A stretch of 64,000 bases of DNA. Origin: an uncultured Planctomycetaceae bacterium. GTDB lineage: Bacteria; Planctomycetota; Phycisphaerae; SM23-33. A program made the position numbers and the translations under genes. How positions within the stretch are numbered: position 1 is the first letter of the stretch; each line of letters begins with the position of its first letter. Positions 12,947 to 28,761 of this stretch are shown one piece after another. The stretch is from the NCBI GenBank assembly GCA_964631565.1, contig CAZVYJ010000001.1, positions 12,705 to 76,704 on the forward strand, read 5' to 3'. Below the pieces are notes generated by a model. It saw only the letters and a list, made by a program, of their open reading frames with translations. It did not search any database and was not told the DNA's origin.

Positions 12947-14304
12947 AAACGCAGATATGGATTACATCCGTGCTGCTCCTGACCGCCCTCGCCGCAGCGA
13001 CGCATGCCGCGAACGTGGACCTGGTCACGCTGCCCAGCCGCGACACGGTGCAACTGACCATCTACAACTCCGAGGATATTACGCTGGTCAAGGAGACACG
13101 CAATATCACGCTGAAGAAGGGCATGAATAAAATTCAGTTTTCATGGGCAGGCACGCTTATTGACCCGACGAGTGTGGAGTTCCGCCCGCTGACGCATGTT
13201 GATGAAATTGAATTGGCGGATACCGTATTTCCCGGCCAGAAGCCCCAGCACCTGATATGGAACATCGACTCGAAGTTTGAGGGTGAGGTGAAGGTTGAAG
13301 TGAGCTACTTCACCAGCGGCCTGACATGGACGATGGACTACGTCGCCACCTGCGACCCGGCCGAGGAGAAGATGCAGCTTCGCGGCTATGTTCGCGTGTT
13401 CAACAATTCCGGCGAGGAATACGAGAACGCCGAAGTCCGTCTTATTGTCGGCACGATAAATCTCGTCGAGAAGATAGCCGACCTCGCTCGCCGCAAGGGA
13501 ATACCCGTACCTCTTGAAGACAGTAAAGATTATAACGAAATGAAGAGAGGCGCCATAACAAAGAGCATCACCAGGTCAGAACGGGAATTCGATGGCGACA
13601 TGATTGAGGGAAAAAAGCCGCATGGGATAGTCAAGGAAGGCCTGAGCGAGTACTTCATGTTCTCGATAGAGGGCACGGAGACCATCCCCAACGGCTGGTC
13701 GAAACGCATGCAGGCGGTGAAGGCCGACGACGCGAAGTTCGACATACTTTACCGCATGCGTGACTTCCAGTACGGCCCGCGGCCGGTACGTTTCTTCATC
13801 TGGCGCAACGATGAGGAGCACAAGCTCGGCGAGTCGCCTCTGCCTGACGGCCGCGTACGCATCTTCCGCGAAAACGGCAAGGACGGCCTGAGCTTCCTCG
13901 GCGAGCAGCAGATACGCTACGTGCCGATAAAGGCTGAGATTGAAGTCAACCTCGGCGCTGACGACCTTGTCGTCTACGAGACCCGCAAGATGTCCTCTGA
14001 GCGGCTGAACTTCCACTTCCGATGGTCGGGCAGCAGGGAATGCGTGGACGGCTGGGACGAGAAATGCGCCTGGCTGGACACGGTCCGCAACTACCGCACC
14101 AAGCCGATAAGATTCGAGCTTCGCCGCCGCTGGCTTGGCGATGTCGATTACACGTCCGAAGTGACGACGACGCTGTTCGACTTCAACACGATTCAGACGA
14201 CCATCGACATCGGCGCCCGCGACAAGAAGGATTACCCCTGCACGGTGGTCACTCATTATGGAGTCAACAGCAAGCAGAACAGGATAAATCTCAGGAAAGA
14301 TTGA
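12943..14304 (+). CDS. secreted hypothetical protein, paralog 3
   Basis: ATGA overlap with the stop of paralog 2. Signal peptide [22 protein letters not shown]. Near-identical to paralog 2 outside 13494-13628. Confidence 0.75.
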
Positions 14305-14737
14305 TGGCGTCAGGCAGTGTTTCGACGAATGCGCGTATTTCGTCCCTGACGCGGCGGTAACAATTGAGAATCTCTTCTTCACTGTCGGCGGACTCAGCCA
14401 GCTTTGGGGGGTCGTCGAAGCCGACGTGAATCACGCGAACGCTGCCCGGGAAAACCGGGCAGTGCTCGTTTGCATGTCCGCACAATGTCACCACGCAGTC
14501 GAATTTCACGCCGGCCAGCTCGTCGACGTGCTTGGACCGCTGGGCCGATATGTCCACGCCCGCCTCGGCCATCACCTTCACCGCCCGCCCGTTCATGCCG
14601 TGCGTCTCGATGCCGGCCGAGTACGCCTCCAGGCAGTCGCCCTTGAGCTTCCTCGCCCAGCCCTCGGCCATCTGGCTGCGGCAGGAGTTGCCTGTGCAGA
14701 GAAACAGGATTTTCGTTTTTTTCTTACGTTCATTCAT
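14291..14737 (-). CDS. arsC: arsenate reductase, thioredoxin-coupled LMW-PTP family
   Basis: [27 protein letters not shown] (CX5R P-loop) and [15 protein letters not shown] (second/third Cys). ORF-track start at 14800 overlaps arsM, so the internal ATG is used; ATG at 14755 is an alternative. Confidence 0.85.
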
Positions 14738-14756
14738 CAGTTCACCACGAGTCATG

Positions 14757-15518
14757 CTATCGCAATGCCAGCACGGTAATGGAGGCGGCTGCGCCGGCAT
14801 TCGGGGCGGTTATCGGATCATCACAGGAATTGGACGCCTTGTAGGTATGGTCGCTGAGTATTTCCATTTTATCGAAGCCGGCGTCGCGGATAGCCTGCAG
14901 ATACTCATCCCGCAGCATCGCGCCGGCGATGCAGGCGGCGTAGAGGTCGGCGTCATTGTGGGCCGACTCCGGCAGCGGCCGGTTCAGCACGATGTCGCTG
15001 ACGATCATCCGCCCGCCGGGCTTCAGCACGCGGTAGACCTCACGGAATACCTGCGGTTTGTCCGGCGAGAGGTTGATGACGCAGTTGGAGATCACCACGT
15101 CCACGGAGGCGTCATCCACAGGCAGGTGCTCGATATGTCCTTCCCGGAACTCGACGTTGGCCAGACCAGTTGTCGTGAAGAACCTGACGGCATTTTTGCG
15201 GGCCAGTTCAAGCATCTCCGGTGTCATGTCCACGCCAATCGCCCGGCCTTCGTCGCCGACCTTATGGGCGGCCAGGAATACGTCCTTGCCTGCTCCGCTG
15301 CCGAGGTCCAGCACCACGTCGCCCTTGTTGATGTACCCGAACGCCAGCGGATTGCCGCACGACAGGCCCAGCTCCGACTCGGGCACGGGATGGTCGCTCA
15401 CGGTGTAGGCCTTGTCGTCGCAGCAGCAGGAGCTTTTCGAATCGCAGCATGAGGATTGCTTGCGGGCGACTTCGCCGTAAGCCTTCCGGACCAGTTCATG
15501 CGTTTTGTTTTTGGACAT
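14757..15518 (-). CDS. arsM: arsenite S-adenosylmethionine methyltransferase
   Basis: SAM motif [13 protein letters not shown]. Cys-rich N-terminus [23 protein letters not shown]. Typical ArsM length. Confidence 0.85.
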
Positions 15519-15541
15519 ATACGCTTACCTTCACTTTCGGA

Positions 15542-16750
<1,209 letters not shown>

Positions 16751-16834
16751 ATCGCCAACCTTTCCTCTTCAGTGCGTCGGGAGTCGCCGGTGCGGAGAAA
16801 TCGGGATTTTAAACTTATCGCTCATGGTTTTTCC

Positions 16835-17206
16835 TCAGCAGGTTTTGTAATGCCTGCACAGTTCTTTGCGTGTCATCTTCCGGACGCATTTGAGTTTTTT
16901 GGCGTCTTCGCGAACGCGGCTGTCCTTGGCCAAGCATTCAATCGCCGCCGCCAAGATGGCGCGTACGCAAGGCGGGTCCGGTTTCTCGGTCAGGCTATAG
17001 TAAATCCACCGGCCGTCCTTGCGTGTTTCGACCAGGCCCGCCTGGTGCAGAATGGCCATATGCTTCGAGACAGTCGAGGGGGCCAGCTCCAGCAGCTCGA
17101 TGATCTGGCAGACGCACAGCTCACCGCCCGTAAGGGCCATCAAAGCCCGCACGCGGCCTTCGTCCGACAATGCTTTGGTGACAGTCAGAAACTCTCGCAC
17201 TTTCAT
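16835..17206 (-). CDS. arsR: ArsR/SmtB family metalloregulatory repressor
   Basis: wHTH domain with ELCVCQI metal(loid)-binding motif. RBS cggaga. First gene of arsR-acr3-arsM-arsC. Confidence 0.85.
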   Translation of the reverse strand: MKVREFLTVTKALSDEGRVRALMALTGGELCVCQIIELLELAPSTVSKHMAILHQAGLVETRKDGRWIYYSLTEKPDPPCVRAILAAAIECLAKDSRVREDAKKLKCVRKMTRKELCRHYKTC

Positions 17207-17231
17207 TCTCCGTTACTTCGCCATATAACGA

Positions 17232-17259
17232 ATTATAGACGCCCGCAGCCGGACGTCAA
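17232..17259 (-). promoter_or_regulatory. sigma70-like promoter (TTGACG-16 nt-TATAAT) for the arsR-acr3-arsM-arsC operon
   Basis: Minus-strand reading ttgacgtccggctgcgggcgtctataat ends ~25 nt upstream of the arsR ATG. Confidence 0.55.
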
Positions 17260-17333
17260 CGATAATTCATGATTTTTTCAGGACGGTCGCCGCCCGGTCT
17301 TCCGGATGCGGTCTTTCATTTTTTTTGCGTCCG

Positions 17334-18197
17334 CTATCTCAGAGCCGGGATCAGCAGCACCGGCACGGGCGCATGGCGGGCGACGTTGTGGCTGACGCTG
17401 CCCAGGAACACTTCGCCGAAGAAACCGCGTCCCTGGCTGCCCATGACGACCAGAGAGATATCGCCCCGGCGAGTGCGGCGGAGGATTTCCTCTGCGGGCA
17501 GGCCGTATGGCAGCTCGATCTGAACATCCTGCACACCCGTACCGGCCAGTGCTTCTTTCATCCGCTCCAGCCGCTCGCCGTCAATGGCGTTGAACTCTTC
17601 CAGTCGCTCTTTGAGATGGCGGTCGATCTTCGTGCGATCCTGGACGTGCATCAGGACAACCGACTTTACGCCGCCGACCAGCTTCCGGACGGTCTGGAAT
17701 GCATGCTCGGCGTTTTCCGAGAAATCCGTCGGGAACAGTACGCGGTCCGGGGAGGCCAGCGGACATTCTCGCCGACAATCCTTGTCCTCATGGATGCGTG
17801 CAACCAGCAGCGGCAGTCGGCAGCTGTGCAGCACATCTCCAGCCGCGCCGCCCAGGAACACCTCGCCGGCCAGACTGTGTACTCTCGATCCGATGACAAC
17901 AAGGTCGCAGTCTTTGTCCTTGGCGGCGCGGGTCACTTCCACGCGAGGGTCGCCCAGAAGAACTTCAGCGTCGGCCGTATAGCCCTGCGTTTCGAGTATC
18001 TTTCGGCAGCGGTCGAGATCGCCCTTGAGGATGTTTTCGACATTGGCCCGGACGCCTTGAACCTCGTGGAGGCGAAGGCAAAACGCCAGGACGACATGGT
18101 CGACGCCCAGGCTGCGCAGGCCGACCTTGCACTGGAGGAACTTCTCAGACGGCTCGCTGAGGTCCGACACGATCAACGCCTTCTTGAATATGCTCAT
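17334..18197 (-). CDS. tandem universal stress protein (2x UspA domain)
   Basis: Internal start MSIFKKALIVSDLSE (ORF-track 5-prime extension to 19001 overlaps the neighbouring gene and is rejected). Two Usp repeats; VVMGSQGRGFFGEVFLGSVSHNVARHAPVPVLLI is the classic UspA C-terminus. Confidence 0.8.
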   Translation of the reverse strand: MSIFKKALIVSDLSEPSEKFLQCKVGLRSLGVDHVVLAFCLRLHEVQGVRANVENILKGDLDRCRKILETQGYTADAEVLLGDPRVEVTRAAKDKDCDLVVIGSRVHSLAGEVFLGGAAGDVLHSCRLPLLVARIHEDKDCRRECPLASPDRVLFPTDFSENAEHAFQTVRKLVGGVKSVVLMHVQDRTKIDRHLKERLEEFNAIDGERLERMKEALAGTGVQDVQIELPYGLPAEEILRRTRRGDISLVVMGSQGRGFFGEVFLGSVSHNVARHAPVPVLLIPALR

Positions 18198-18217
18198 GCT
18201 CCGCCTCTCTCTCGGAA

Positions 18218-18928
18218 TCACAGCCTCAATCCATAGATGTGCGTCAGCGTGTAGTAGACGCCTACCGCGACGAAGATAATGCCGGTGATCAACCTGAACC
18301 ACCGTTCGATCATGGTCATGGCGCTGAACGCCTTGCCTACGTACTGGCTGGCGAAGGCGATGACCAGGGCGAAGGCGATAACCGGCACGGCTGTACCGAT
18401 GCCGTAGGCCACCGGCGGCAAAACCGTTGAGCCGTGCTCCAGCGAGATCACCAAGGCGCTGAGGAACAGGGCGATCGACGGCGGGCAGAAGGCCAGGGCG
18501 AACAGGATGCCCAGAGGCAAGGCCCAGATTGCGCCGCCCTTGGCGATGCGTTCCTGGAGCTTCGAGCCGCCAACGCCGATGGAGATGTTCAACTCGATCA
18601 GTCCGAGCAGGATCATTCCGATGAACAGCAGGGCCGGCCCCAAGGCCAGGTTCCCGTAATGCTGAAGGCCTCGGGAGGTCGGGCTGGCGTACTCCTTCAG
18701 GCTTCCCGCACCGCCGGTGGCGGCCTGAAACGCCCAGAGCAGCGCCACTCCCAGCCCCACATAGACCAGCGTGCGGCCGAGCGTGTACAGCGCGGCCGAC
18801 AGCAGCACACGCTTGGAGTTGCCGACGTTGCGGCTGAGAAACGAAATCGCCGCGATGTTCGTCGCCAGCGGACACGGGCTGACCGCCGTCAGCAGCCCGA
18901 ACCAGAAGACGCCCGCAAGGACCGCCAT
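18218..18928 (-). CDS. CcdA/DsbD-family transmembrane thiol-disulfide electron transporter (ArsG-like)
   Basis: Six TM helices with the SPCPL motif. GTG at 18937 would give GTGA overlap with the upstream stop; ATG at 18928 is used here. Confidence 0.75.
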   Translation of the reverse strand: MAVLAGVFWFGLLTAVSPCPLATNIAAISFLSRNVGNSKRVLLSAALYTLGRTLVYVGLGVALLWAFQAATGGAGSLKEYASPTSRGLQHYGNLALGPALLFIGMILLGLIELNISIGVGGSKLQERIAKGGAIWALPLGILFALAFCPPSIALFLSALVISLEHGSTVLPPVAYGIGTAVPVIAFALVIAFASQYVGKAFSAMTMIERWFRLITGIIFVAVGVYYTLTHIYGLRL

Positions 18929-18933
18929 GAAAC

Positions 18934-19404
18934 TCACTTGCCGCCTCCTTCCATGGCGGAGCGAATGCCCGTCCGCAGGTAGTCGGTGAGCCGGTCGGCA
19001 TTCGAGGCCAGTTCCATCACCTCATCCAGTCGCACGCGGGAGACCTCCTTGCCGTCCTCGAACCGCACTGCGATGACCATGTTTTCGCCGACGTTGTACT
19101 TGTCGGCCAGCGCTGCGTTCTCAGGCTCCAGGTAGTTCAGAGAGACGAATTCCATCGTGCCGGCGGCGACCGCTTCGGCGAACTCCTCTCGCACCAGTTT
19201 CTCAGCCGTCGTTTCGATGAAGGTGCAGGTTACGCAGGGAATGCCGTGCATGTAGTAGACCACGACTTTATTCTCGCCCGGCGCAACTGCCGGCTCCGGC
19301 GGGGCGGGAGCGTTGCGTAAGGCAATTTCCTTGCCGACGGCCACGCCGATGCTGACCAGCAGAAACGCCGTCAACAACTTGCCGATGATCTTCTTGAGCT
19401 TCAT
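18934..19404 (-). CDS. small exported CxxC protein (CVTC), paralog of 20414-20872; possible ArsF-family
   Basis: aaggag RBS. Signal anchor MKLKKIIGKLLTAFLLVSIGVAVG. VVVYYMHGIPCVTCTFIE motif shared with the paralog (VIVYYMHRTYRCPACREME). Confidence 0.6.
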   Translation of the reverse strand: MKLKKIIGKLLTAFLLVSIGVAVGKEIALRNAPAPPEPAVAPGENKVVVYYMHGIPCVTCTFIETTAEKLVREEFAEAVAAGTMEFVSLNYLEPENAALADKYNVGENMVIAVRFEDGKEVSRVRLDEVMELASNADRLTDYLRTGIRSAMEGGGK

Positions 19405-19413
19405 AGGGACTCC

Positions 19414-20364
19414 TTACTTCACGCCCATTTCCGCCATCTTCTTCTCCAACTCCTCCTGGGGCCAGAAACCGGTGTGGCGGAAAGCCTCCTTGCCGCTCGC
19501 GTCAAAGAAGATTTGCACCGGGATGGACTGGATTCCGTAGCGAGCGGCTAGTATCTGCTCCTCGCGCACGGACACGAAGATGACGTTCGCCTTGCCATCG
19601 TACTTTTTCTTCAGGGTCTCCAGGATGGGCGCCAGCATGTCGCAAGGCCGGCATCCCTTGGAACCGAAGTCCACCAGCGAGGGCTTGCCACTGGCGCGGG
19701 CCTTGTCCACCGGATTGTCCATCGCCAGTTCGGCCTGATGCTTCAGCCAAGGCGCGGCGACCTCAATAGTGACCCGCTGGCCGAGGGTCTGTATGTGCTT
19801 GTCCACGATCTCCTGTTGTTTCTGCTGCCGCAGAAACTTGGCGATGGCGTCCTTGACATCCGCCAGTTTACGGTCCCCAATCATATCTTTATTCTTCTCG
19901 TAGAACTCGGCCACCTCGGCGTCCGTGACCTTTACATCCGCAGTGAGCTTGTCAAAATACGCCTTGAGTAATTCCTGCTCGGAGAGCCCGGAGGTGTCCT
20001 TGCCTTCCTTGGCCGCGGCTGCCTTGGCTTCCGCAGCCAGCAGTTGCCGCGTGGCCATCTGCTCCAGCAGGAAGAAGGCGTTCTTGCGGAGTTGCTCACG
20101 CACGGTTTCCGGGGCCTTGGCGATCTCGGCATCAACGTCTTTCTGTGTAACCTTCAGATCATCGGCTTGCAGCAGGACGCCGTCTGGCAATTCCATCGGC
20201 CGGGCATGGACCAGAGCGGCGGACGCAAGATTAGGATAAACGTCCGACACGGACTTCGACTTCTCATCCTGTGCGGAACTCGGTTGCGTGGTCGCATCTT
20301 GCGCCAAAGCGCACGAAGCCATGAAGCCTATGGCGACTGCAGATATCATCAAACGAATAATCAT
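19414..20364 (-). CDS. periplasmic thioredoxin (CRPC) fused to an N-terminal SurA/PpiD-like chaperone-type domain
   Basis: Internal start MIIRLMISAVAIGFMASCALA (signal peptide). C-terminal LVDFGSKGCRPCDMLAPI is a thioredoxin fold. The N-terminal ~200 aa are helical, Lys/Glu-rich and SurA_N-like. Confidence 0.65.
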   Translation of the reverse strand: MIIRLMISAVAIGFMASCALAQDATTQPSSAQDEKSKSVSDVYPNLASAALVHARPMELPDGVLLQADDLKVTQKDVDAEIAKAPETVREQLRKNAFFLLEQMATRQLLAAEAKAAAAKEGKDTSGLSEQELLKAYFDKLTADVKVTDAEVAEFYEKNKDMIGDRKLADVKDAIAKFLRQQKQQEIVDKHIQTLGQRVTIEVAAPWLKHQAELAMDNPVDKARASGKPSLVDFGSKGCRPCDMLAPILETLKKKYDGKANVIFVSVREEQILAARYGIQSIPVQIFFDASGKEAFRHTGFWPQEELEKKMAEMGVK

Positions 20365-20413
20365 GGTAAAATACTCCCGCCAGCCGGAGGCTGACTTTAT
20401 TAAACTCGGCACG

Positions 20414-20872
20414 TCAGTTTGCTTTATCCAGGCGATCACGAATCGCCCCTGCGACGTACGCCTCAAATTCATCTGGTTTTTTATATAAATTCCATGTCTC
20501 TTCGAGTACTTCGTGCGATACCTCTTTTCCGTCGCGATATGAAACCAGAACCAATGAACTGGTGTTCAGTTCGTATCGCTCGGCTATATCTTCGTGCTCC
20601 TGGTAATTCAGGACTTGCCACTGCACTTTCCCCGAAGCCAACTCGTTGGCGAACTTGTCCTGGACCACGTAGTGGGCCATTTCTTCCATCTCCCGACACG
20701 CGGGGCAGCGGTATGTCCGGTGCATGTAATAAACAATGACACTGTTGGATGGAGCGGCTGCGCCTGAATCGCCGGCCTTGCCGGAATTCCCGGAATCTGA
20801 TGTCTCCGTCGCACAGCTGGTCAGCATCATGCCGAACAGTCCAAAGATCGCCGCCTTAACCAATACTTTCAT
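20414..20872 (-). CDS. small CxxC lipoprotein (CPAC), paralog of 18934-19404
   Basis: Lipobox MKVLVKAAIFGLFGMMLTSC and YYMHRTYRCPACREMEEMAHYV. Confidence 0.6.
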   Translation of the reverse strand: MKVLVKAAIFGLFGMMLTSCATETSDSGNSGKAGDSGAAAPSNSVIVYYMHRTYRCPACREMEEMAHYVVQDKFANELASGKVQWQVLNYQEHEDIAERYELNTSSLVLVSYRDGKEVSHEVLEETWNLYKKPDEFEAYVAGAIRDRLDKAN

Positions 20873-20916
20873 GGTTTGTCTCTTTCTTGTTTGTTAACAA
20901 AGTGTTTACCTGGCGA

Positions 20917-21525
20917 TTACTCGCTGCCTTCGGGTTCCGCGCCGCCGAAGTCGTAGCCAAGTTCTTTCCACTTGGCGAGGATATCCTCTTTGCTCAGGAA
21001 ATTCTCATGCCGCCAGAGTTCCTTGCCGCCGGCGTCAAAGAATATCTGCGTCGGAATCGTCTCGATGTTGTATTTCCTGGCAAGGTCGGCGTTTTCCCGA
21101 AGCCCGACATCGATGAACTCCACGTCGAACTTGCCGGCGTAGTCTTTTTTCAGTTCCTCCAGTATCGGGGCCATCATCTTGCATGGAATGCAAGTCTTGG
21201 AACCGAGGTCAACCAGCTTGGGCAAGCCGTTTGTCTCGGTTGCGGCCTTGCCGTTTGGATTATCTGCCTCACCGCATCCGATTATCTGGGCGCCGACAAT
21301 CACCCCAGTAATGCCGGCCAGAAGCATCGCAATTAGTCCGATTTTACAGAATTTACGCATTTTATTTGTTCCTTCCGCATTCCATGTCGCCTTTGTCCAC
21401 TTGACCGCCTGCCACAGCCCAAATATCAGGGCGAACAACATCAGCCAGCCGAACTGGCCCATTCCGCCGCCCGAGCCGCCGTCACCGCCACCGCTGCACG
21501 GGCATTGTGCCAACAGGCGGATCAT
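20917..21525 (-). CDS. membrane-anchored thioredoxin-family protein (CIPC)
   Basis: ATGA overlap with the upstream stop supports the start at 21525. Two hydrophobic segments, then LVDLGSKTCIPCKMMAPILEEL...IPTQIFFDAGGKE (thioredoxin fold). Confidence 0.7.
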   Translation of the reverse strand: MIRLLAQCPCSGGGDGGSGGGMGQFGWLMLFALIFGLWQAVKWTKATWNAEGTNKMRKFCKIGLIAMLLAGITGVIVGAQIIGCGEADNPNGKAATETNGLPKLVDLGSKTCIPCKMMAPILEELKKDYAGKFDVEFIDVGLRENADLARKYNIETIPTQIFFDAGGKELWRHENFLSKEDILAKWKELGYDFGGAEPEGSE

Positions 21526-21755
21526 GCCAGCATCGCCTTGATGGCCTCGGCGTCGGGCACCTTGCCTACGACCTTCACCACGCCGTCCACGGCCAGCGCG
21601 GGCGTCATCATCACGCCGAACTTCATGATCTCGTTGATGTCCGTGATCTTCTCGATGGCGTATTCGATGCCCAGCGCCTTGGCGGCGGCTTCGGCATTCT
21701 CCGCGAGTTTTTTACACTTGGGGCACCCGGTGCCCAGTATCTGCAACTTCTTCAT
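21522..21755 (-). CDS. small thioredoxin-like redox-active disulfide protein (77 aa, CPKC)
   Basis: MKKLQILGTGCPKCKKL...MMTPALAVDGVVKVVGKVP is the MTH895/TM0996-type small thioredoxin commonly found next to ArsP-type permeases. Confidence 0.8.
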   Translation of the reverse strand: MKKLQILGTGCPKCKKLAENAEAAAKALGIEYAIEKITDINEIMKFGVMMTPALAVDGVVKVVGKVPDAEAIKAMLA

Positions 21756-21758
21756 CTC

Positions 21759-22190
21759 TTACGCTCCAGTTCGTAAATGGTTTAATATTTCCAAAGCCTT
21801 GACGACGACCTTCTGTGCCTGCTCGCTGGTGCAGCGGACACCCTTGATCTTCTCGATGCCGAGGTCGGTTACTCTGACATGTTTATAATTGTTAATTCCG
21901 TGGCGGTCGAATGTCTTTTTCGCGCAGTCCATGGGGCAGCCGTCGATCACCATGTTCACGTCGGCGTCGCGGGCGGTCTGCACCATGCCTTGTATGTCGC
22001 CGCCCAGCCCGGCCAGGCAGAACATCGCGCCTTCGCCGGCGAAGGCCAGCTCTCTCGCAGCCTTGTCGGCAATTTCACCCACATTCGCACTGCCGGAGCA
22101 GGCGTACAAAAGGACAACCTTGCCCGCGTCGCTCCCGCAGCAGCAGGATGCTTCATTGGTCGGTTTCGGGATTCCACAGCAGTCGCTCAT
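21759..22190 (-). CDS. DGC-domain putative zinc-binding protein
   Basis: Cys-rich N-terminus SDCCGIPKPTNEASCCCGS and the diagnostic VIDGCPMDCAKK motif. Confidence 0.7.
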   Translation of the reverse strand: MSDCCGIPKPTNEASCCCGSDAGKVVLLYACSGSANVGEIADKAARELAFAGEGAMFCLAGLGGDIQGMVQTARDADVNMVIDGCPMDCAKKTFDRHGINNYKHVRVTDLGIEKIKGVRCTSEQAQKVVVKALEILNHLRTGA

Positions 22191-22191
22191 A

Positions 22192-23022
22192 TCATTGCTC
22201 CTGTTCTAGGGGTTCTGGTCGGGCCGAGTTCTTGGATGCCGGGCCATTCGTATCTTGAAGGCAGTTCTTATTGACCACATCGCCGCGCCGGCCTCTGTGT
22301 TCGTACGAATCCGGCGTCCAGTGAAAGTCTTTCAGGATGCTGACCGCAAAGCATTCTTCGGGTGGGGCATTCAGCAGACGCCTGGCATAGTCCCATTCCA
22401 TGCGCTGGCAAAGCCGCATCTCCTCCAGCGTGCACCCACCGGAGCGGATCTTCTCTTCCAGGGCGAGCACCTCAGCCGGAAAGACACCGGCCTTCAGCGA
22501 TACTTTGACGGTCTTGCCCGTCGAGAAACGGTGCAGGATGAACTCGTTGCCCAGCGCCGGGTCGATCTTCTGCGTGCCAAACCGGACTCTCCCGCCTGTC
22601 AGGTATGCGGCCACATCCCCATAGCACGGCGAATTGTTCGTGATGCAGCCAGTATCGGTCCGGTCTATAATGCCATCGGGATACAGAGCATTCAGGCCCA
22701 CGGACATGGCACATGCGGCTGTGACTAGGCCGTCGCACGGATGGCCATGCATCTTGACCAGGTCCTTCAGCGTGATTGTCTTCGTTTCGGAGACGTAGGG
22801 GCCGAGGCTGCTCTCCGTGTCCCTGACGTGGAACACCGGCGCGTACTGGCCCCTGGCCATCCAGTCGAAATAGTACCACGTAGGGCTGTTATCCATCGAC
22901 TCCGTCGTCTTCATTGTGCCGCCGGAGCGGTCCGTACAACCGGCAAGGCAAGCTGCTTCCATTGCGAATGCAAGGGTCGCCACAGCCCCCACAACGACAT
23001 GATGTCTGTTGATACAACTCAT
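22192..23022 (-). CDS. FmdE/FwdE-domain lipoprotein
   Basis: Internal start MSCINRHHVVVGAVATLAFAMEAACLAGC (lipobox), with ATGA overlap to the RND stop. HGHPCDGL motif of the FwdE family. ORF-track extension to 23418 rejected. Confidence 0.55.
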   Translation of the reverse strand: MSCINRHHVVVGAVATLAFAMEAACLAGCTDRSGGTMKTTESMDNSPTWYYFDWMARGQYAPVFHVRDTESSLGPYVSETKTITLKDLVKMHGHPCDGLVTAACAMSVGLNALYPDGIIDRTDTGCITNNSPCYGDVAAYLTGGRVRFGTQKIDPALGNEFILHRFSTGKTVKVSLKAGVFPAEVLALEEKIRSGGCTLEEMRLCQRMEWDYARRLLNAPPEECFAVSILKDFHWTPDSYEHRGRRGDVVNKNCLQDTNGPASKNSARPEPLEQEQ

Positions 23023-26000
23023 TCGGCTGTCTCTTTCTGCGGTTGCGGACGCAAACCAAGCAGCCAGCGACCGGTGGCCGCCGCCTTGACGGTCACGGTG
23101 TCCAAGCTCGAGTACACCACCGGGATGACGATCATGGTCAGGAAGGTGCCGACGGCCAGACCGGTGGCTGCCACGATGCCCAGCGGACTCATACGTTCCA
23201 GGCCAACCGCCATCTGGAAGACCAGCGGCGTCAATCCGACGATCGTCGAGACGGTCGTCATCAGGATCGGGCGAATCCTCAGGCGAACGGACTGGAGGAT
23301 CGCCTCGTCCTTGGTCACTCCGGCCTTGCGGGCGTTGAGGACGAAATCCAGCAGCAGGATGCTGTTGTTGACGATGGTTCCGCCCAGGAAGATCATGCCC
23401 ATCGTCGCCGGTTTGCACATCGGTTTGTCGAACAGCAGCAGGCCCCAGAAGGCTCCGGCGATGGCCAGCGGAATGGCGGCCATGATCGTCACGGGATGCG
23501 CGAACGATTTGAACATGGCCACTAGGAGGATGTACAACAGCACGAAGCCGATCATCAGGGCCTTGCCCATTTCGGCACTGCCGGTTTTCATGTCGGCCGT
23601 TGTGCCGGAAACATCGATGGTGTACCCGGCGGGGGGATGGATGGCCTCCAACCGCTTCGTGGCCATGCCCGCAATCTGGCCGATGGTATAGACGCGGTTG
23701 ACGCCTGTAATGTCGATGGTGTTACACAGCCGCTCGCGGGTAATGAAGGGTTGGTTTCGCTGCGGATTCAGCGTCGCCATCGCTCGCACAGGCAAGGGGC
23801 CAAACCGCGTCGAAACATACGCGTCGGAGAGCTGCGCCGGTTCGCTGATGTTCTCGGAGGCGTACTGCACGGTAATAGGAATGTCCAGATAGCCTTTGAG
23901 GCGCATGGGCGAGGCCGGGATGCCCTTTACGATGCCCTTGAGTTCCCAGGCAAGGTCGGCCGGCGTGGTCTGATAGAGTTTCGCCAGAGCAGGATCGACG
24001 TCCACGTGATATTCGGTCTTGTCGAAGTACCAACTCCGGCGAACGTCCATCAAGCCGGATAGTCCCTTAAGCGCGTTTCGGCACTGGTCGGCCAGTTGGC
24101 TGACTACATGAGAATCAGGCCCGCTGACGATGATGTCCAACGGAGCGCGGGTTGTGGAGACCGGTGTGGCCCCGTACTCGGTGATTCGAAAGCTCCGCAC
24201 GCCCGCAATCTGCCGCAACTGCTCTCGCCACTTATCCTGGATTTGCCAGATCGTTTCTGGCCTGTGCTGGCGATCCACCAGGTGAATGATGATCTTGCCC
24301 GACTGGGCGGTGGCGCCGCCTCCGCCGAAGCTGATCTGCCCGGGCTCCGACCCTACGATAGACGAGATGGTTTCCACGCCGGGCTGTTTATAGACGGCCG
24401 TTTCGATCTGGCTGAGCGTTTTCTCGACCTCGGCCGGAGATGCGTCGGTCGGCGCGTCGAACTCCAGATTGACGATGCCCGTGTCCATCGGCGGCATGAG
24501 TTCTCCGCCGATCAAAGGCTTGACCACCTTCATGGTCACGATGAAGAACGCCGCCGCGAGGATCAGCGTGGCCAACCGCCACCGCAGAGCTCTTCGCAGA
24601 ATACTCAGGAAGAACCGCGACAGCAGGCCGACCCCTTTGTCCGTGTTGGCGAATAGACGCTCCAGGAAGTTCCTGTGTTCATGCGGCCGAGCCAACAGAC
24701 GTGATGCCATCAGAGGCACAACCGTCAACGAGACCAGCAAAGAGGCCACCAAGGTAGCCGAGATCATCATGTTCAACGGCCGCATCGTCTGCTGGGAATA
24801 GCCACCGGTGAACATCACGGGAATCAGCACGATGACCGTCGTGAGCATGCCCGCCGTCACGGCCAGGGCGACTTCACTCGTTCCTTGCTTGGCCGCTAGG
24901 GCTGCGTCGGGATGCTTCATCTCGCGGTAGTGCCGGTAGATGTTCTCCAGAACGACGATGGAGGCGTCCACCACCATTCCCACCGAGATGATCAGACCGG
25001 AGAGCGTCACCATGTTCAGCGTGTACGGGCTGAACCACAGCACGACCAGGCCGGCCAGAAACGCCAGCGGGATGCTCACGGAAACAACTACGGCCGCCCG
25101 CATGTCGGCCAAAAAGAAGAAGATCACGAGTACGGTCAGGACCACCGCCTGCCATAGGGAGCTGCGCATGCCGTTGACGTTCAGGTCGATGAGGGGCTGC
25201 TGGTCGTCGGTGATCTGAAAAGCGATGTCAGGGTATTGGGCCTCAAGCTTGGGCAGGAAACTCTTGATGCTCTGGATGGCGCTGACCGTCGGACCGTTAT
25301 CGGGCCGCATGACATTGACGGCGATGGCCGGCTTTCCGTTGCCGTGATAGACGCTGCGCTGCTCCGCTTCGCCCAGGCTGACGTTGGCTACATCCTCTAG
25401 GCGGAGCCAACCCTGGTCGGAGTGCTTGATCGGCAGTTGACGGATCTGCTCAAGGTCAGCGAACTCACCGATTGTCTTGACCAGGTATTCCCGTCGCTCC
25501 GAATAGATCGTGCCGGCCGGGGCCGATACGTTCTGTTTCGCCAGAGAAGCGACCACCTCATTGATCGACAAGCCGTTAGCAGCAAGGCGATCCCGGTCCA
25601 CCCGCACCTTCACTTCAGGCTGATGGCCGCCGAATACGTCCACGTCGGCGACGCCTGGCAGCGTCAGGATCTGGTCCTCGATCTGGTTCTCGGCCAGGAG
25701 GCGAATCTGCGACAGTGTCTTGGTGCTGCCGGGCTTGGGCGACAGGGCCAGTGTCAACAGCGGCCGTGTCGCATCGGTGATTTTGTAGATACGAGGTTCC
25801 AGGATGTCCTTGGGCAGTTGGGCCCGGATTCGGCCGATGGCGTTCTGCACGTCCAGGACCGCCTCGCCGATCGGTTTGCTGTAATCGAACTCGGCGTTTA
25901 CGGAGGATACCTCGTCGCGGCTGGTGCTGGTGACCTTGGCCAGCCCGCCGAGGGTGTTCAGTTCCTTCTCGACGACTTGGGTGATCTTGTCGGCTACATC

Positions 26001-26150
26001 GCCAGCGTCCGCGCCCGGATATACGGTGATGACGACCACCTGGGGCGGAACCGTGTTGGGGAATAAGTCTGTGGGAATCTTAATGAAGGCGAAAAAACCC
26101 AGCGCAACCACCACCAGCACCAGGGCGATGATCACGAACGGATTCCTCAT
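23019..26150 (-). CDS. RND efflux transporter permease subunit (AcrB/CzcA superfamily)
   Basis: Start MRNPFVIIALVLVVVALGFF 17 nt after the MFP stop. 12-TM topology with two large periplasmic loops. Proton-relay motif VGMVVDASIVVLENIY in TM4. Confidence 0.9.
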   Translation of the reverse strand: MRNPFVIIALVLVVVALGFFAFIKIPTDLFPNTVPPQVVVITVYPGADAGDVADKITQVVEKELNTLGGLAKVTSTSRDEVSSVNAEFDYSKPIGEAVLDVQNAIGRIRAQLPKDILEPRIYKITDATRPLLTLALSPKPGSTKTLSQIRLLAENQIEDQILTLPGVADVDVFGGHQPEVKVRVDRDRLAANGLSINEVVASLAKQNVSAPAGTIYSERREYLVKTIGEFADLEQIRQLPIKHSDQGWLRLEDVANVSLGEAEQRSVYHGNGKPAIAVNVMRPDNGPTVSAIQSIKSFLPKLEAQYPDIAFQITDDQQPLIDLNVNGMRSSLWQAVVLTVLVIFFFLADMRAAVVVSVSIPLAFLAGLVVLWFSPYTLNMVTLSGLIISVGMVVDASIVVLENIYRHYREMKHPDAALAAKQGTSEVALAVTAGMLTTVIVLIPVMFTGGYSQQTMRPLNMMISATLVASLLVSLTVVPLMASRLLARPHEHRNFLERLFANTDKGVGLLSRFFLSILRRALRWRLATLILAAAFFIVTMKVVKPLIGGELMPPMDTGIVNLEFDAPTDASPAEVEKTLSQIETAVYKQPGVETISSIVGSEPGQISFGGGGATAQSGKIIIHLVDRQHRPETIWQIQDKWREQLRQIAGVRSFRITEYGATPVSTTRAPLDIIVSGPDSHVVSQLADQCRNALKGLSGLMDVRRSWYFDKTEYHVDVDPALAKLYQTTPADLAWELKGIVKGIPASPMRLKGYLDIPITVQYASENISEPAQLSDAYVSTRFGPLPVRAMATLNPQRNQPFITRERLCNTIDITGVNRVYTIGQIAGMATKRLEAIHPPAGYTIDVSGTTADMKTGSAEMGKALMIGFVLLYILLVAMFKSFAHPVTIMAAIPLAIAGAFWGLLLFDKPMCKPATMGMIFLGGTIVNNSILLLDFVLNARKAGVTKDEAILQSVRLRIRPILMTTVSTIVGLTPLVFQMAVGLERMSPLGIVAATGLAVGTFLTMIVIPVVYSSLDTVTVKAAATGRWLLGLRPQPQKETAE

Positions 26151-26167: not shown

Positions 26168-27355
26168 TCACTTCATGGCCTCCACCTTGAGTCCCGCCGA
26201 CAGCTGCACCCAACCCAGGAACGTGCTCAGGACGACTTGGTCGCCTTCTCGCACGCCCTCGACGGCCACGTCGTCACCATCCGCGCCCAGAACGCTCACC
26301 GGTCTGGCGCGCAGATGCTCATCGTTGACAATGAACACAAACGTCTTGCAGTCTGGCGATTCGACCACGCTGGAAGATGGGACCAGCGTGACATTCATTC
26401 TGGAACTCAGCACCACCTTCAGGCTCATATAGGCTCCGCAAGACAGGCCCTCCGCTTCGGGACCGTCGAGGTAGACTTCCGCCCGAAGCATGCGCGCGGT
26501 GCTCAGCGAGGGGAACATGTGCGACAGCACTGCCGTCCGGCCCTTGCTGGCAACGGAGAAGCTTACCGGCAGCCCCTCATGAACCTGCGGCAGATCCTGC
26601 TGGGGTACATCGAAGCAGAGCTTGAACTTGCTGCGGTCCTCGACGGTCATCAGGCTCTTGCCGGGGGTCGCCAGATCGCCGGGGTCCACCATGCGATGCG
26701 ACACCAGGCCGTCAAATGGGCTGCGAATCGTGCAGTAGCCCAGCGTCGTCTCCAACTCGGCCTGCTTGCGTTTCAGGGCCTCGATCTGCCGCTCGATGGC
26801 GGCAGACTTCTGGCGAGCGGCGTCCAGTTTGCCTTGGGCCTCATTGGCTTTGTCGGCCGTGCCCTCAGCTTGCGCCCCGGGGATCGCGCCTTTGTCGGCA
26901 AGCTCCTTGTCTCGTTGTCGCTCCCGCTGCCAGTAAGCACTGGTCTTCGCCAATGATTCCACGGTCGCCTGATTGGAGGCCAGGTCGGCCTGGGCCTGCT
27001 CGACTTGCGCCTTGGCGGCAGCAATGCTGTCCTCAATCTGTCGCCCGTCGAGAATCACAAGGATGTCGCCGGCCTTTACTGCCTCGTTTTCGTCGTGCAG
27101 GACCTTCTCAACCGTAGCCGTCAGACGGGCCGAGACATCCGCCAAGCGGATCGGCTCCACCACGCCCAGATAGTCACGCGTTTGTTGCAGATTGCCCTGG
27201 CGAGCCGTCGCAACGCGAACCGGGACTGGCTGCATGCCGTACTTCGGAGCTGCAGCCAACGCCAGCTTCTTGTGCCGGACCAGCAGGAGGCCGCCAACCA
27301 CGATCAGCCCAACCACCGCCAGTACGATTACGATGCGAATGCTTTTCTTGACCAT
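26168..27355 (-). CDS. RND efflux periplasmic adaptor (membrane fusion protein, HlyD family)
   Basis: Internal start MVKKSIRIVIVLAVVGLIVVGG overlapping the OMF stop by 1 nt. Coiled-coil hairpin, lipoyl and beta-barrel segments. ORF-track 5-prime extension rejected. Confidence 0.85.
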   Translation of the reverse strand: MVKKSIRIVIVLAVVGLIVVGGLLLVRHKKLALAAAPKYGMQPVPVRVATARQGNLQQTRDYLGVVEPIRLADVSARLTATVEKVLHDENEAVKAGDILVILDGRQIEDSIAAAKAQVEQAQADLASNQATVESLAKTSAYWQRERQRDKELADKGAIPGAQAEGTADKANEAQGKLDAARQKSAAIERQIEALKRKQAELETTLGYCTIRSPFDGLVSHRMVDPGDLATPGKSLMTVEDRSKFKLCFDVPQQDLPQVHEGLPVSFSVASKGRTAVLSHMFPSLSTARMLRAEVYLDGPEAEGLSCGAYMSLKVVLSSRMNVTLVPSSSVVESPDCKTFVFIVNDEHLRARPVSVLGADGDDVAVEGVREGDQVVLSTFLGWVQLSAGLKVEAMK

Positions 27356-28761
27356 TACTGCCGCGCTCCTATCGCCAGTTTCAACTGGGCCAGGGCGACG
27401 TTGTAGTCGGCCAGCGCCCGGTAGTAGTTGGTCTGCGAGTCCAGCAGGGCCGACTGCGCGTCCAGAACGTCCACGATCGCGCCCTTGCCCAGGTCGTACT
27501 TCTCGCGCTCGATCCGCAGGCTTTCCTTGGCCTGTTCGATAGCTGTTTCCGTGGCCTTGACTCGCTCCCTGGCCGAGCCGACATTCAGCACGGCCGTCTC
27601 CACGTCGAGCTGAATCTGAAGTTCCAATTGCCGCAATCGCTCTTGAGCGGCCATGAGACGGGCCTTCTCTTGGCGAATTCTCGCCTCGATTCGTCCGCCT
27701 TCGAAAATGGGGATATCCACCACGACGCCTACCCGGCCTACGTCGCCAGAACTGTCCGTCCCGGAAGGCCGATCCGTCGTACCGGCGGCCCAACGGCCAC
27801 CGTATGCGCCCTCCAGCGAAACTGTCGGCCACTGCGCCGCCCGTGCGGCGTCCACGGCCTTGGCCTGAGCCTCCAACTCCGCACGGGCCGCAAGGTAGTC
27901 GGATCTGCCGTTGAAAGCCTGACTCAGGGCTTGAGCGGTTTCGGGGATGGCAGCTTCGGCAATCGCCAGTTCGCCGGCGGGGTCAACCGGCTTGTCCGGC
28001 CGATCCAAACCCAGCAGGTTCGTCAGCACGCGGGCCTGGACGGCAAGCACGTTGCGCTCCCGCACAAGCTGCTGGTCCAGGTTGGCCACGCGGACCTCCG
28101 TGCGTAGCTGGTCCACCTTGGCCGCCTTCTGCGCCGCGATCAGGTCCTCGATGCGTTTGAGGTGCTCCTGGAGCGCCTTCTTTGAAAACTCCAGCGATTC
28201 GATGACCTCCCGTTGGGCCAGGATGCCATAGAACACGCTAGAGACGTTGAAGACCAGTTCCTCCTGCGTCCGGGCGAGGCGGTGCTCCGACGCCTTCTGG
28301 AGCAACTCTGCCGCCTTGATCTCACTGGTGATCCGCCCGCCGGTGAACAGGGGCATGGTCACCACCAGATCGCCGGCGAATATGTCCCGGCTGAATGCGC
28401 CCGATTGGTTATTCTCGCTCGCCGCGATCAATCGCTGGCTGTCCAGGTAGTGATTGTATCCGCCAATGGCGTGCAGGCTGGGCAGGCGCTGTCCTGCGGC
28501 AAAGTCGCGCTGCGCCGTCGCCGCGGCCACGTCATACACTGTGGCGGCAACTTCCGGGTTGTTGGCCAAGGCCACGCGAACGGCCTCATTCAAAGTCAGC
28601 GGACCCTGAACCGGTTGGGTGGCTGCGGAATGGGGGCCGCCGAGATAAGGACGCGGGCCTCGCCCCATGCCCGCGTATGGGTCGGTCGGATTGGTCAGCA
28701 CGCACCCCGGAGCTAGAGCCGCAAGGGCGACCAGCCAGAATGTCTTCATCGGGGTATTCAT
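27355..28761 (-). CDS. TolC/OprM-family outer membrane efflux protein
   Basis: Lipoprotein-like signal LAALAPGC. Two tandem repeats with long coiled coils. C-terminal DVLDAQSALLDSQTNYYRALADYNVALAQL is typical of OMF proteins. Confidence 0.85.
   Translation of the reverse strand: MNTPMKTFWLVALAALAPGCVLTNPTDPYAGMGRGPRPYLGGPHSAATQPVQGPLTLNEAVRVALANNPEVAATVYDVAAATAQRDFAAGQRLPSLHAIGGYNHYLDSQRLIAASENNQSGAFSRDIFAGDLVVTMPLFTGGRITSEIKAAELLQKASEHRLARTQEELVFNVSSVFYGILAQREVIESLEFSKKALQEHLKRIEDLIAAQKAAKVDQLRTEVRVANLDQQLVRERNVLAVQARVLTNLLGLDRPDKPVDPAGELAIAEAAIPETAQALSQAFNGRSDYLAARAELEAQAKAVDAARAAQWPTVSLEGAYGGRWAAGTTDRPSGTDSSGDVGRVGVVVDIPIFEGGRIEARIRQEKARLMAAQERLRQLELQIQLDVETAVLNVGSARERVKATETAIEQAKESLRIEREKYDLGKGAIVDVLDAQSALLDSQTNYYRALADYNVALAQLKLAIGARQ

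Follow-up and report, generated by a model that had tools for sequence, protein, structure and literature searches.

A putative transmembrane cysteine-pair relay encoded by arsE, arsF and arsG in the ars island of a Phycisphaerae-type planctomycete

Introduction

What do the proteins named ArsE, ArsF and ArsG do for the bacteria that encode them? The names describe a nitroreductase and an efflux permease for aromatic arsenicals: in a 2019 Environ Sci Technol study of Shewanella putrefaciens 200, Chen, Zhang and Rosen reportedly found that ArsEF reduces the nitro group and that ArsG exports aromatic amino-arsenicals. The locus analyzed here, from an uncultured planctomycete, is of interest because its anatomy does not match these names: cytoplasmic and periplasmic partners are separated by a membrane protein with two cysteines, and some of these components are naturally fused to one another in relatives. 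The stretch of DNA examined, hereafter the window, comprises 64,000 nucleotides (assembly GCA_964631565.1, contig CAZVYJ010000001.1, positions 12,705 to 76,704 of the forward strand).

Results

Organization of the ars island

The ars island comprises 18 genes on the minus strand (14291-30639; Table 1), and the ArsE-ArsF-ArsG module makes up the downstream portion of one operon within it, which ArsR controls. This transcription unit probably begins with arsR2, which is preceded by promoter-like sites (30748-30707), and probably ends with the tandem universal stress protein gene. Genes for a tripartite RND pump lie within the operon and are translationally coupled to the rest of it; the start sites of the pump's membrane-fusion protein (Met) and permease were set by translation, and the permease stop overlaps the start of the FmdE-domain lipoprotein by 4 nt. 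The second unit, of classical inorganic-arsenic genes, has a promoter-like site scoring 11/12 before it (17259-17232) and encodes Acr3 (382.5 bits, cutoff 282.8), ArsM (300.3 bits, cutoff 263), ArsC (160.1 bits, slightly below the cutoff of 174.3) and ArsR (88.9 bits). An HMM scan of all ORFs in the window identified exactly two ArsF proteins, one ArsG and two thioredoxin domains of the module type, and inspection of the ORFs in the island and near ArsG revealed no ccsBA/resBC or ccm genes.

Table 1. Features of the ars island, with positions in the window.
Feature	Position	Strand	Evidence
Second unit, arsR-acr3-arsM-arsC	14291..17206	-	classical inorganic-arsenic genes, giving ars context
Tandem universal stress protein	17334..18197	-	Pfam Usp 124.7 bits, two domains
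ArsG, 6-TM DsbD_2 membrane protein	18218..18937	-	NF040495 225.6 bits, cutoff 200; Pfam DsbD_2
ArsF paralog 1, signal-anchored, CVTC	18934..19404	-	NF040494 71.4 bits, cutoff 60
Chaperone-like domain plus thioredoxin (CRPC), periplasmic lipoprotein	19414..20364	-	Pfam PF00085 E 1.2e-12
ArsF paralog 2, lipoprotein, CPAC	20414..20872	-	NF040494 95.1 bits, cutoff 60
CIPC thioredoxin, membrane-anchored, periplasmic	20917..21525	-	Pfam Thioredoxin E 1.6e-13
ArsE, 77-aa thioredoxin-like, CPKC	21522..21755	-	TIGR00412 MTH895/ArsE 106.3 bits, cutoff 62; Pfam Thioredoxin_3
DGC-domain protein, Cys-rich, cytoplasmic	21759..22190	-	Pfam DGC 106.9 bits
FmdE-domain lipoprotein, lipobox LAGC	22192..23022	-	Pfam FmdE E 9.8e-15; 276-aa call on identical contig
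RND inner-membrane permease	23019..26150	-	Pfam ACR_tran 655.8 bits
RND membrane-fusion (periplasmic adaptor) protein	26168..27355	-	TIGR01730 156.8 bits, cutoff 94.9
TolC-like outer-membrane factor, lipoprotein	27355..28761	-	NCBIfam TolC family E 2e-48, below cutoff
ArsP_1-family permease (PF03773)	28766..30319	-	Pfam ArsP_1 213.4 bits
arsR2, ArsR/SmtB repressor	30307..30639	-	Pfam HTH_5 E 5e-17; NCBIfam metalloregulator 79.6 bits, cutoff 55

ArsG, a membrane protein with two invariant Cys-Pro motifs

The original prediction described a CcdA/DsbD-like SPCPL protein overlapping an exported CVTC protein and linked such a pair to the NCBIfam names ArsG and ArsF. The genes are arranged as described, arsF lying directly upstream of arsG and being translationally coupled to it by a 4-nt overlap of stop and start (GTGA), and the names proved correct, as ArsG and both ArsF proteins exceed the curated cutoffs of these models, so that the resemblance is not fortuitous.

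ArsG (239 aa; GTG start, with the Shine-Dalgarno sequence GGAAGGAGG ahead of it) matches the equivalog model NF040495 with E 5.1e-67, the alignment spanning positions 5-224 of the 225 in the profile. In the helices of a predicted model, its two Cys-Pro motifs lie in a 3+3 repeat: SPCPL (residues 19-23, C21) in TM1 and FCPP (residues 149-152, C150) in TM4. SPCPL and FCP are invariant in two alignments (n = 22 and n = 10) extending from Planctomycetota to Bacteroidota. Loops 1, 3 and 5 are rich in K/R, from which both termini are predicted to lie outside.

PF13386 (DsbD_2) is the only Pfam match of ArsG; neither PF02683 (DsbD) nor a CcdA model was matched in the Pfam and NCBIfam scans. When the PDB was searched by fold, CcdA (5vkv) ranked first (probability 0.90, TM 0.47-0.49), although the match had E 0.44 and the query model was of low confidence (pLDDT 66.7); the next matches had probabilities of at most 0.10. 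The sequence profile of ArsG matched nothing in the PDB at E ≤1. Among NCBIfam models, there was also a weak match to the Ni/Co efflux protein RcnA (E 1e-4). DsbD_2 also borders true transporters, and some ArsG relatives carry the name CcdA at JGI.

ArsF and ArsE, thioredoxin-like proteins on opposite sides of the membrane

The second ArsF gene starts 1468 bp upstream of the first, in agreement with the CPAC lipoprotein paralog anticipated 1.5 kb upstream. With 35% identity (E 7e-21), the two proteins are, as judged from sequence, true paralogs: one (156 aa) has a hydrophobic N-terminal anchor, the other (152 aa) a lipobox (LTSC, Cys20), and each has its cysteines at C56/C59. NF040494 is a subfamily-level model, and no Pfam family matches ArsF. 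The AF2 model of paralog 1 (pLDDT >94 over residues 40-150) has the order beta-alpha-beta-alpha-beta-beta-alpha, with CxxC at the N-terminus of helix 1, and all 50 of its top 50 fold matches in the PDB are thioredoxins. The prediction for ArsF is thus an extracytoplasmic thioredoxin-fold domain, preceded by an N-terminal membrane anchor or lipobox. In the ArsF alignment, a conserved G-x-N replaces the cis-Pro that characterizes oxidoreductases with this fold, so that ArsF may not be a classical reductase.

ArsE, which went unnoticed in the original prediction along with the CIPC thioredoxin, has its CPKC motif near the N-terminus (residues 11-14) and no signal peptide, and is thus predicted to be cytoplasmic. 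A hydrophobic N-terminal segment precedes the domain in 54/54 ArsF ORFs with a recognized motif, and 56 of 69 ArsE ORFs begin directly at the CxxC domain, which argues that ArsE and ArsF reside on opposite sides of the membrane. The Pfam scan of both proteins and the ArsF model revealed no flavin, nitroreductase or flavodoxin-like FMN-binding domain.

Two additional periplasmic thioredoxins

The CIPC thioredoxin has two TM helices, a canonical cis-Pro (‘IPTQ’) and a conserved N-terminal motif, QCPCSGGG, that is kept in five loci (L001, L010, L013, L017, L033). Relatives join thioredoxins of this type to a Cys-rich MerB/NosL-like domain.

For the CRPC protein, the longest ORF spans 19414-20472, but the likely start is an internal Met at 20364, which was also selected by the gene caller on an identical Logan contig and which yields 316 aa with a lipobox-like FMASC; with this start, the apparent overlap with the CPAC gene disappears. 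The original prediction of a periplasmic thioredoxin fused to a SurA_N-like chaperone domain is borne out in its thioredoxin half, the C-terminal half being canonical with cis-Pro ‘IPVQ’. Its chaperone half is weakly but consistently supported: the N-terminal half matches NCBIfam PrsA (E 2.4e-6; 27 bits, far below the cutoff of 303), and a 5-sequence profile of it matches the chaperone domains of PEB4/Cbf2 (3rfw, E 8.7e-4) and HP0175 (E 1.7e-3), while Pfam SurA_N gave no match. No parvulin domain was found in the protein, the match to Rotamase_2 being confined to a 30-residue edge (E 0.011); the thioredoxin domain sits at the parvulin's C-terminal position. Orthologs occupy the same slot in three loci (L008, L010, L017), and another is nearby and divergently encoded in L026.

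Distribution of the operon

The ArsR-ArsP_1-ArsE-ArsF-ArsG operon, in which the ArsP_1 permease is usually the first structural gene, is present in at least 593 species-level genomes from many phyla. These organisms are largely anaerobic, and their habitats are largely anoxic sediments, springs and the deep subsurface. Of 87 loci, 82 encode ArsF within 6 kb of ArsG, 75 ArsE, 64 ArsP_1 and 61 ArsR; DGC proteins are found near ArsG in 25/87. Linkage of ArsG to ArsR, ArsP_1, ArsE, Acr3 and ArsC is conserved across phyla. A Usp gene again adjoins ArsG in L008, L019, L023, L037 and L052, other envelope pumps flank the module in L001, L012, L020 and L045, and loci of the PVC group insert a canonical periplasmic thioredoxin. 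Natural fusions join ArsF to ArsG (P0204) and ArsF to CIPC-type thioredoxins in either order (Trx-ArsF in P0279, ArsF-Trx in P0329 and L040). ArsF sequences form 3812 clusters at 50% identity. The family assignments are themselves ordinary: relatives with up to 97% identity are proteins of Planctomycetota/Phycisphaerae MAGs to which NCBI has already given the name ArsG or ArsF.

Discussion

The analysis shows, for the module, family membership, predicted folds, cysteine conservation, signal-based sidedness, gene order and fusions. From them we infer the direction of transfer, the nature of the cargo and the physiological substrate, and we favor, as the probable reading, a CcdA/DsbD-type trans-membrane relay of Cys pairs that runs from cytoplasm to periplasm and serves resistance to trivalent arsenicals. 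ArsE would act inside through its CPKC; ArsG would act within the membrane through its TM1 and TM4 Cys-Pro motifs; outside, the acceptors would be the two membrane-tethered ArsF proteins and the two canonical periplasmic thioredoxins. The cargo would most likely be reducing equivalents, delivered from the cytoplasm to periplasmic dithiols; less certainly, it could be the thiophilic As(III) moiety itself, moved by dithiol ligand exchange. ArsP_1 and Acr3 would expel trivalent (organo)arsenicals into the periplasm, the relay would allow the envelope to cope with them, and the embedded RND/TolC pump would clear the periplasm. The canonical periplasmic thioredoxin inserted by PVC-group loci lends support to the relay, since such a thioredoxin requires a source of reductant and the operon encodes no DsbD-type protein other than ArsG. 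Weighing against the relay are the low confidence of the ArsG model and of its CcdA match, the lack of a PDB sequence match to the ArsG profile at E ≤1, the closeness of DsbD_2 to true transporters together with the weak RcnA match, the missing cis-Pro of ArsF, and the activities reported for Shewanella.

If the names were literal, ArsE and ArsF would jointly act on trivalent roxarsone or nitarsone, reducing its nitro group, and ArsG would export the resulting aromatic amino-arsenicals, so that the island would target aromatic organoarsenicals, as the original prediction proposed. We consider this improbable, although all three proteins pass NCBIfam models built around the Shewanella work, PGAP gives relatives the same names, and the weak RcnA match would fit the DsbD_2/LysE-type superfamily, which includes genuine exporters. 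A cytoplasmic ArsE and an extracytoplasmic ArsF could not form a soluble two-subunit enzyme, and both are thioredoxin folds in which a flavin or nitroreductase domain is absent. The two invariant intramembrane Cys-Pro motifs are a hallmark of thiol relays, and a separate ArsP_1 permease is nearly always co-encoded. Synthetic nitro-aromatic arsenicals are also implausible as the selective agent in so many genomes from mostly anoxic habitats: the five-gene operon is canonical in hundreds of sediment and subsurface lineages, largely anaerobes, to which roxarsone can never have been available. The proposed target is thus not established, as it derives only from family names given after one heterologous Shewanella study; a native role specific for roxarsone or nitarsone is unlikely, and the names ‘nitroreductase plus efflux pump’ suit the gene anatomy poorly. 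The original prediction had offered a dedicated periplasmic reducing pathway as the alternative should the ArsF/ArsG assignment fail; both descriptions apply to the same genes, and it is the either/or framing that does not hold.

A housekeeping pair of CcdA and a ResA/CcsX-type protein, active in cytochrome c maturation or periplasmic disulfide isomerization and located beside ars genes by chance, is very improbable. It would account for the Pfam description of DsbD_2 (‘cytochrome C biogenesis protein transmembrane region’) and for the JGI name of some relatives, but ArsG passes the ArsG equivalog cutoff without matching PF02683 or CcdA models, ccsBA/resBC genes are lacking nearby, and the linkage to ars genes is kept across phyla; the grouping with housekeeping CcdA that the original prediction had weighed against itself was accordingly not found. 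More compatible with the locus, yet still unlikely in our estimation, is an outward hand-over resembling the Mer system, a sub-variant of the Cys-pair relay with an arsenical instead of electrons as cargo and metallochaperones on both sides. By dithiol ligand exchange, a trivalent arsenical would pass from ArsE to the Cys pair of ArsG, on to ArsF and the Cys-rich proteins of the periplasm, and from there to the RND pump. Such a route would reconcile the reported efflux permease with the Cys architecture, and it is consistent with the missing redox-type cis-Pro of ArsF, the extra conserved periplasmic CPC motif on the CIPC thioredoxin, the fusion of thioredoxin to a MerB/NosL-like domain in relatives, and the embedded, translationally coupled RND pump with its counterparts at other loci. 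Against it, both additional thioredoxins have the canonical CxPC and cis-Pro and resemble reductases, and CcdA-type proteins are known as carriers of electrons and not of metals.

A relay of the CcdA/DsbD type, if correct, would mean that the function label on thousands of database entries is misleading, and would alter the interpretation of ars genes in metagenomes from anoxic environments rich in arsenic. More tentatively, and with nearly as much inclination to believe it as to doubt it, we suggest that the whole ArsEFG family is an ancient, widespread, arsenic-dedicated CcdA-type relay, for reducing power or for the arsenical, which the PVC group extended into a periplasmic arsenical-handling network. 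The extension would consist of extra thioredoxins, fusions to chaperone or MerB/NosL-like domains and an envelope-spanning pump, and would represent a so far undescribed periplasmic branch of arsenic resistance.

Comparison with known systems

ArsEFG of S. putrefaciens 200 resembles the module closely: ArsE, ArsF and ArsG are above the cutoffs of the same families (TIGR00412, NF040494, NF040495), and arsF and arsG are likewise adjacent and coupled, with arsE upstream, in an ArsR-controlled ars operon. The window differs in its planctomycete host, its two ArsF paralogs, its two extra periplasmic thioredoxins (one chaperone-fused), and the DGC, FmdE and tripartite RND pump genes between those for the ArsP_1 permease and ArsE. 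The activities published for Shewanella, nitro-reduction and efflux of amino-aryl arsenicals, agree poorly with the folds and the sidedness predicted here.

With CcdA/DsbD, ArsG shares six TM helices, an internal repeat with Cys-Pro motifs in TM1 and TM4, and the predicted outside location of both termini. The chain from cytoplasmic thioredoxin through CcdA to ResA, CcsX, CcmG or DsbC has, like the module, a thioredoxin-like donor in the cytoplasm and thioredoxin-fold acceptors tethered to the membrane on the periplasmic side, and in DsbD the acceptor is fused to the membrane domain, as in the ArsF-ArsG fusion. In contrast, ArsG belongs to Pfam DsbD_2 rather than DsbD, its similarity to the sequence of the solved CcdA is undetectable, its ArsF acceptor has no cis-Pro, and the module is dedicated to an ars operon instead of cytochrome c maturation.

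In MerP-MerT-MerA, Cys pairs in periplasm, membrane and cytoplasm pass a thiophilic ion by ligand exchange. This succession of Cys pairs across three compartments recalls the module; the ion travels the other way, being imported for reduction, the element is different, and the folds are unrelated, MerP being ferredoxin-like and MerT having 3 TM helices. In ScsB-ScsC of Salmonella, Proteus and Caulobacter, a copper-stress DsbD-type membrane reductase feeds a metal-binding periplasmic thioredoxin-fold protein. The families differ, copper takes the place of arsenic, and a gene for a dedicated cytoplasmic thioredoxin is missing beside them, but the shared plan is a metal-stress-specific DsbD-type membrane reductase with a periplasmic thioredoxin-fold partner, and the relay proposed here would be a comparable dedicated periplasmic thiol system for arsenic stress.

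Gene content of the module

A CcdA-like gene overlapping the gene for a small CVTC protein, a CPAC paralog of the latter and a CRPC thioredoxin encoded between them, the arrangement put forward in the original prediction, were all found on the minus strand, together with two genes additional to that list, encoding a small ArsE-type protein and a membrane-anchored CIPC thioredoxin (CIPC-Trx). The GTG start of the CcdA-like gene (ArsG) and the stop of the CVTC gene (ArsF1) overlap by 4 nt, and the CPAC protein (ArsF2) is a true paralog of ArsF1 (35% identity, E 7e-21). The CRPC protein (chaperone-Trx) most likely starts at an internal methionine, and a gene caller picked the identical start on the identical public contig; the longest open reading frame would begin at 20472, giving a 59-nt overlap with ArsF2, and that start was set aside. 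An internal start for CIPC-Trx that would create a lipobox (IIGC) was dropped, the segment ahead of it being kept in relatives.

Genes and sites of the arsenic island and its border, in window positions
Feature	Position	Strand	Remarks
ArsG	18218-18937	minus	239 aa; strong Shine-Dalgarno sequence ahead of start; SPCPL at residues 19-23, FCPP at 149-152
ArsF1	18934-19404	minus	156 aa; CVTC
Chaperone-Trx	19414-20364	minus	316 aa; CRPC; start Met most likely 20364
ArsF2	20414-20872	minus	152 aa; CPAC; lipobox LTSC
CIPC-Trx	20917-21525	minus	N-terminal 55 aa at 21360-21525
ArsE	21522-21755	minus	77 aa; CPKC
DGC-domain protein	21759-22190		Cys-rich
FmdE-domain lipoprotein	22192-23022		lipobox LAGC; HGHPCDG motif
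Tripartite efflux system	23019-28761		TolC-like OMF, MFP, RND; complete
Tandem universal-stress-protein (Usp) gene	17334-18197
ArsC, longest ORF	14291-14800		likely start a later Met near 14740
ars island	14291-30639		18 genes on one strand
DUF4139-like protein	11594-12946	plus	exported
DUF4139-like protein	12943-14304	plus	exported
Promoter-like site	17259-17232		11/12 positions matched

All three proteins named in the original prediction scored above the cutoffs of the corresponding NCBIfam models: ArsG reached 225.6 bits against the equivalog model NF040495 (cutoff 200), and ArsF1 and ArsF2 reached 71.4 and 95.1 bits, respectively, against NF040494 (cutoff 60). ArsE scored 106.3 bits against TIGR00412 (MTH895/ArsE; cutoff 62). 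Pfam places ArsG in DsbD_2, ArsE in Thioredoxin_3, and the CIPC and CRPC proteins in Thioredoxin; the Pfam search matched no family to ArsF. HMMs built in this analysis, run over the whole window, recovered two ArsF proteins, a single ArsG and a pair of thioredoxins of this type, and no others. The nearest relatives are proteins from Planctomycetota/Phycisphaerae metagenome-assembled genomes (MAGs; identity up to 97%), several of which NCBI already names ArsG or ArsF family, and PGAP annotates clusters of ArsR, thioredoxin, ArsF, ArsG and permease on Bacteroidota plasmids. With scores above cutoff and relatives already so named, the family assignment is an ordinary one, and a housekeeping CcdA reading was rejected on family scores and gene context. 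The prediction of an ArsG/ArsF module directed at aromatic arsenicals was thus correct as to family, while its aromatic substrate was left unproven.

The island around the module

Unit 1 of the island comprises arsR2, an ArsP_1 permease, the TolC-like OMF, MFP and RND genes, the FmdE lipoprotein, the DGC protein, ArsE, CIPC-Trx, ArsF2, chaperone-Trx, ArsF1, ArsG and the tandem Usp gene, with overlaps of 1-4 nt at several junctions; unit 2 comprises arsR, acr3, arsM and arsC. Promoter-like sites lie 5' of both arsR genes, the only sensible positions in a promoter and terminator scan whose counts did not exceed shuffled expectation. ArsC scored 160.1 bits, just below its NCBIfam cutoff (174.3); its longest open reading frame carries an N-terminal extension overlapping arsM by 44 nt.

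The RND stop and FmdE start overlap by 4 nt. Among related loci surrounding ArsG in other genomes (L-numbers), MFP and MacB-type ABC pumps follow ArsG in L001, in place of the tripartite system, an MFP-like gene follows it in L012 and L020, and L045 has MFP-RND. Tandem Usp genes also lie beside ArsG or the module in the unrelated loci L008, L019, L023, L037 and L052. In L037 (3-305; an 'Anaerolineales' bin), the Usp gene follows an ArsG fragment 95% identical to that of the window, likely reflecting mis-binning or recent transfer. Adjoining the island and convergent with arsC are two paralogous genes in tandem, whose exported products match DUF4139 weakly and begin with a common sequence.

Distribution and conserved gene order

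A pattern scan, taking one genome per species, found ArsG relatives in at least 593 genomes, among them Planctomycetota, Lentisphaerota, Kiritimatiellia, Verrucomicrobiota, Cloacimonadota, Acidobacteriota, Zixibacteria, Ignavibacteria, Chlorobi, Nitrospirales, Spirochaetota, Bacillota and others, many from anoxic sediments, springs or the deep subsurface; at 50% identity, the ArsF profile gathered 3812 clusters. In 87 loci drawn from the best (the window's own contig included), we counted, no farther than 6 kb from ArsG, ArsF in 82, ArsE in 75, the ArsP_1 permease in 64, ArsR in 61, Acr3 in 30, ArsC in 27 and DGC in 25. The canonical operon is ArsR, ArsP_1, ArsE, ArsF, ArsG. FmdE is near ArsG in 3 of these 87 loci. 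Directly after ArsG, one Planctomycetota MAG (L003, 8788-10943) has MtrA-like, CdhD-like (corrinoid protein) and ferredoxin genes, then Acr3, which hints at corrinoid-dependent methyl transfer tied to arsenic.

A periplasmic thioredoxin is inserted before ArsF in genomes of the PVC group, one Cloacimonadota and one 'Tharpella' MAG; it stands by itself, carries a fused Cys-rich MerB-like domain, or takes the chaperone-Trx form of the window. A Kiritimatiellia MAG (L010) and a Phycisphaerae MAG (L017) share the window's order ArsE, CIPC-Trx, chaperone-Trx, ArsF, ArsG. Natural fusions join ArsF to ArsG (P0204, 395 aa), ArsF to ArsF in tandem, thioredoxin to ArsF (P0279) and ArsF to thioredoxin (P0329, L040).

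Protein features

ArsG keeps SPCPL and FCP unchanged in sequences ranging from Planctomycetota to Bacteroidota. Basic residues are concentrated in its loops 1, 3 and 5, which predicts both termini to be outside. Its AlphaFold2 model (pLDDT 66.7) has some six helices, and both cysteines fall where a proline interrupts a helix. When this model was compared with the PDB, the membrane electron transporter CcdA was the sole standout (probability 0.90, TM 0.47-0.49, E 0.44), all other matches having probabilities of at most 0.10; given the low confidence of the model, the likeness in fold is only suggestive. The ArsG profile matched no PDB sequence at E ≤1.

An alignment of 38 ArsF relatives, made, like the model, from ArsF1 homologs (the ArsF2 search returned ArsF2 alone), shows invariant VYY, CxxC, A99 and Y141, preceded by a hydrophobic N-terminal helix. 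The AlphaFold model (pLDDT >94 over residues 40-150) has the strand and helix order of a thioredoxin, helix 1 opening with CxxC; thioredoxins make up all of its top 50 PDB matches, as well as the sub-threshold sequence matches. Where redox-active thioredoxins have a cis-proline, ArsF has a conserved G-x-N.

Both added thioredoxins are canonical (CxPC, cis-Pro). The N-terminus of CIPC-Trx consists of a conserved QCPCSGGG, a first transmembrane helix, a basic KWTKxTW loop and a second helix, a pattern shared with L001, L010, L013, L017 and L033; by the positive-inside rule, its CPC motif would be periplasmic, beside the thioredoxin domain. The N-terminal half of chaperone-Trx weakly matches PEB4 (E 8.7e-4), HP0175 (E 1.7e-3) and PrsA (E 2.4e-6), and the Pfam search did not find SurA_N; this chaperone-like domain suggests possible protein clients in the envelope. 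In related planctomycete loci (L001 5749-7020, L004 5562-6836, also L011, L013, L023, L029, L033), the same slot holds an exported protein of 400-475 aa in which a thioredoxin is joined to a highly Cys-rich domain; this domain matches Pfam MerB (organomercurial lyase/NosL-like) and contains CxxC and GCCxHC motifs, several in all. Such a periplasmic MerB-like domain in an ars operon might act as a metal(loid) chaperone, or conceivably as an analogue of a C-As lyase.

A candidate trans-membrane thiol relay

Among the fetched loci, a hydrophobic segment precedes the domain in all 54 ArsF reading frames with a recognisable motif and, by inspection, in the remaining full-length ones (L049 is a fragment with no visible N-terminus), whereas 56 of 69 ArsE reading frames open with the CxxC domain itself. 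The membrane therefore separates ArsE from ArsF, and the sole candidate link between them is ArsG. The best-supported reading of the module is a CcdA-type relay of cysteine pairs, in which cytoplasmic ArsE would form the inner end, the cysteine pair of ArsG would carry the relay across the membrane, and ArsF and the thioredoxins would receive on the periplasmic side. The published assignment, reportedly based on Shewanella putrefaciens genes in E. coli, has ArsEF reducing nitro groups and ArsG exporting amino-aryl arsenicals. Against such an enzyme and pump stand the opposite sidedness of ArsE and ArsF, their thioredoxin folds, which lack a flavin domain, a separate permease that constantly accompanies them, and the wide ecological range of the operon; these points make the assignment less likely but do not disprove it.

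As to what such a relay might carry, electron transfer through ArsG to the periplasmic thioredoxins is favoured, because the two canonical thioredoxins must be reduced by some partner, and no DsbD-type protein other than ArsG is encoded alongside. Less certainly, the relay may instead pass the arsenical outward by dithiol exchange, in a reversal of Mer logic; the missing cis-proline of ArsF, the conserved, putatively periplasmic QCPCSGGG motif of CIPC-Trx, the Cys-rich fusions of relatives and the RND/TolC pump embedded in the operon all leave room for this reading.

The main value of the module lies in a testable proposal: ArsEFG proteins as a family may form a trans-membrane thiol relay dedicated to arsenic, as opposed to a roxarsone-specific pair of enzyme and pump. 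To the canonical operon, the window adds a second ArsF, a tripartite pump embedded in it, and two periplasmic thioredoxins, one of which is fused to a chaperone-like domain.
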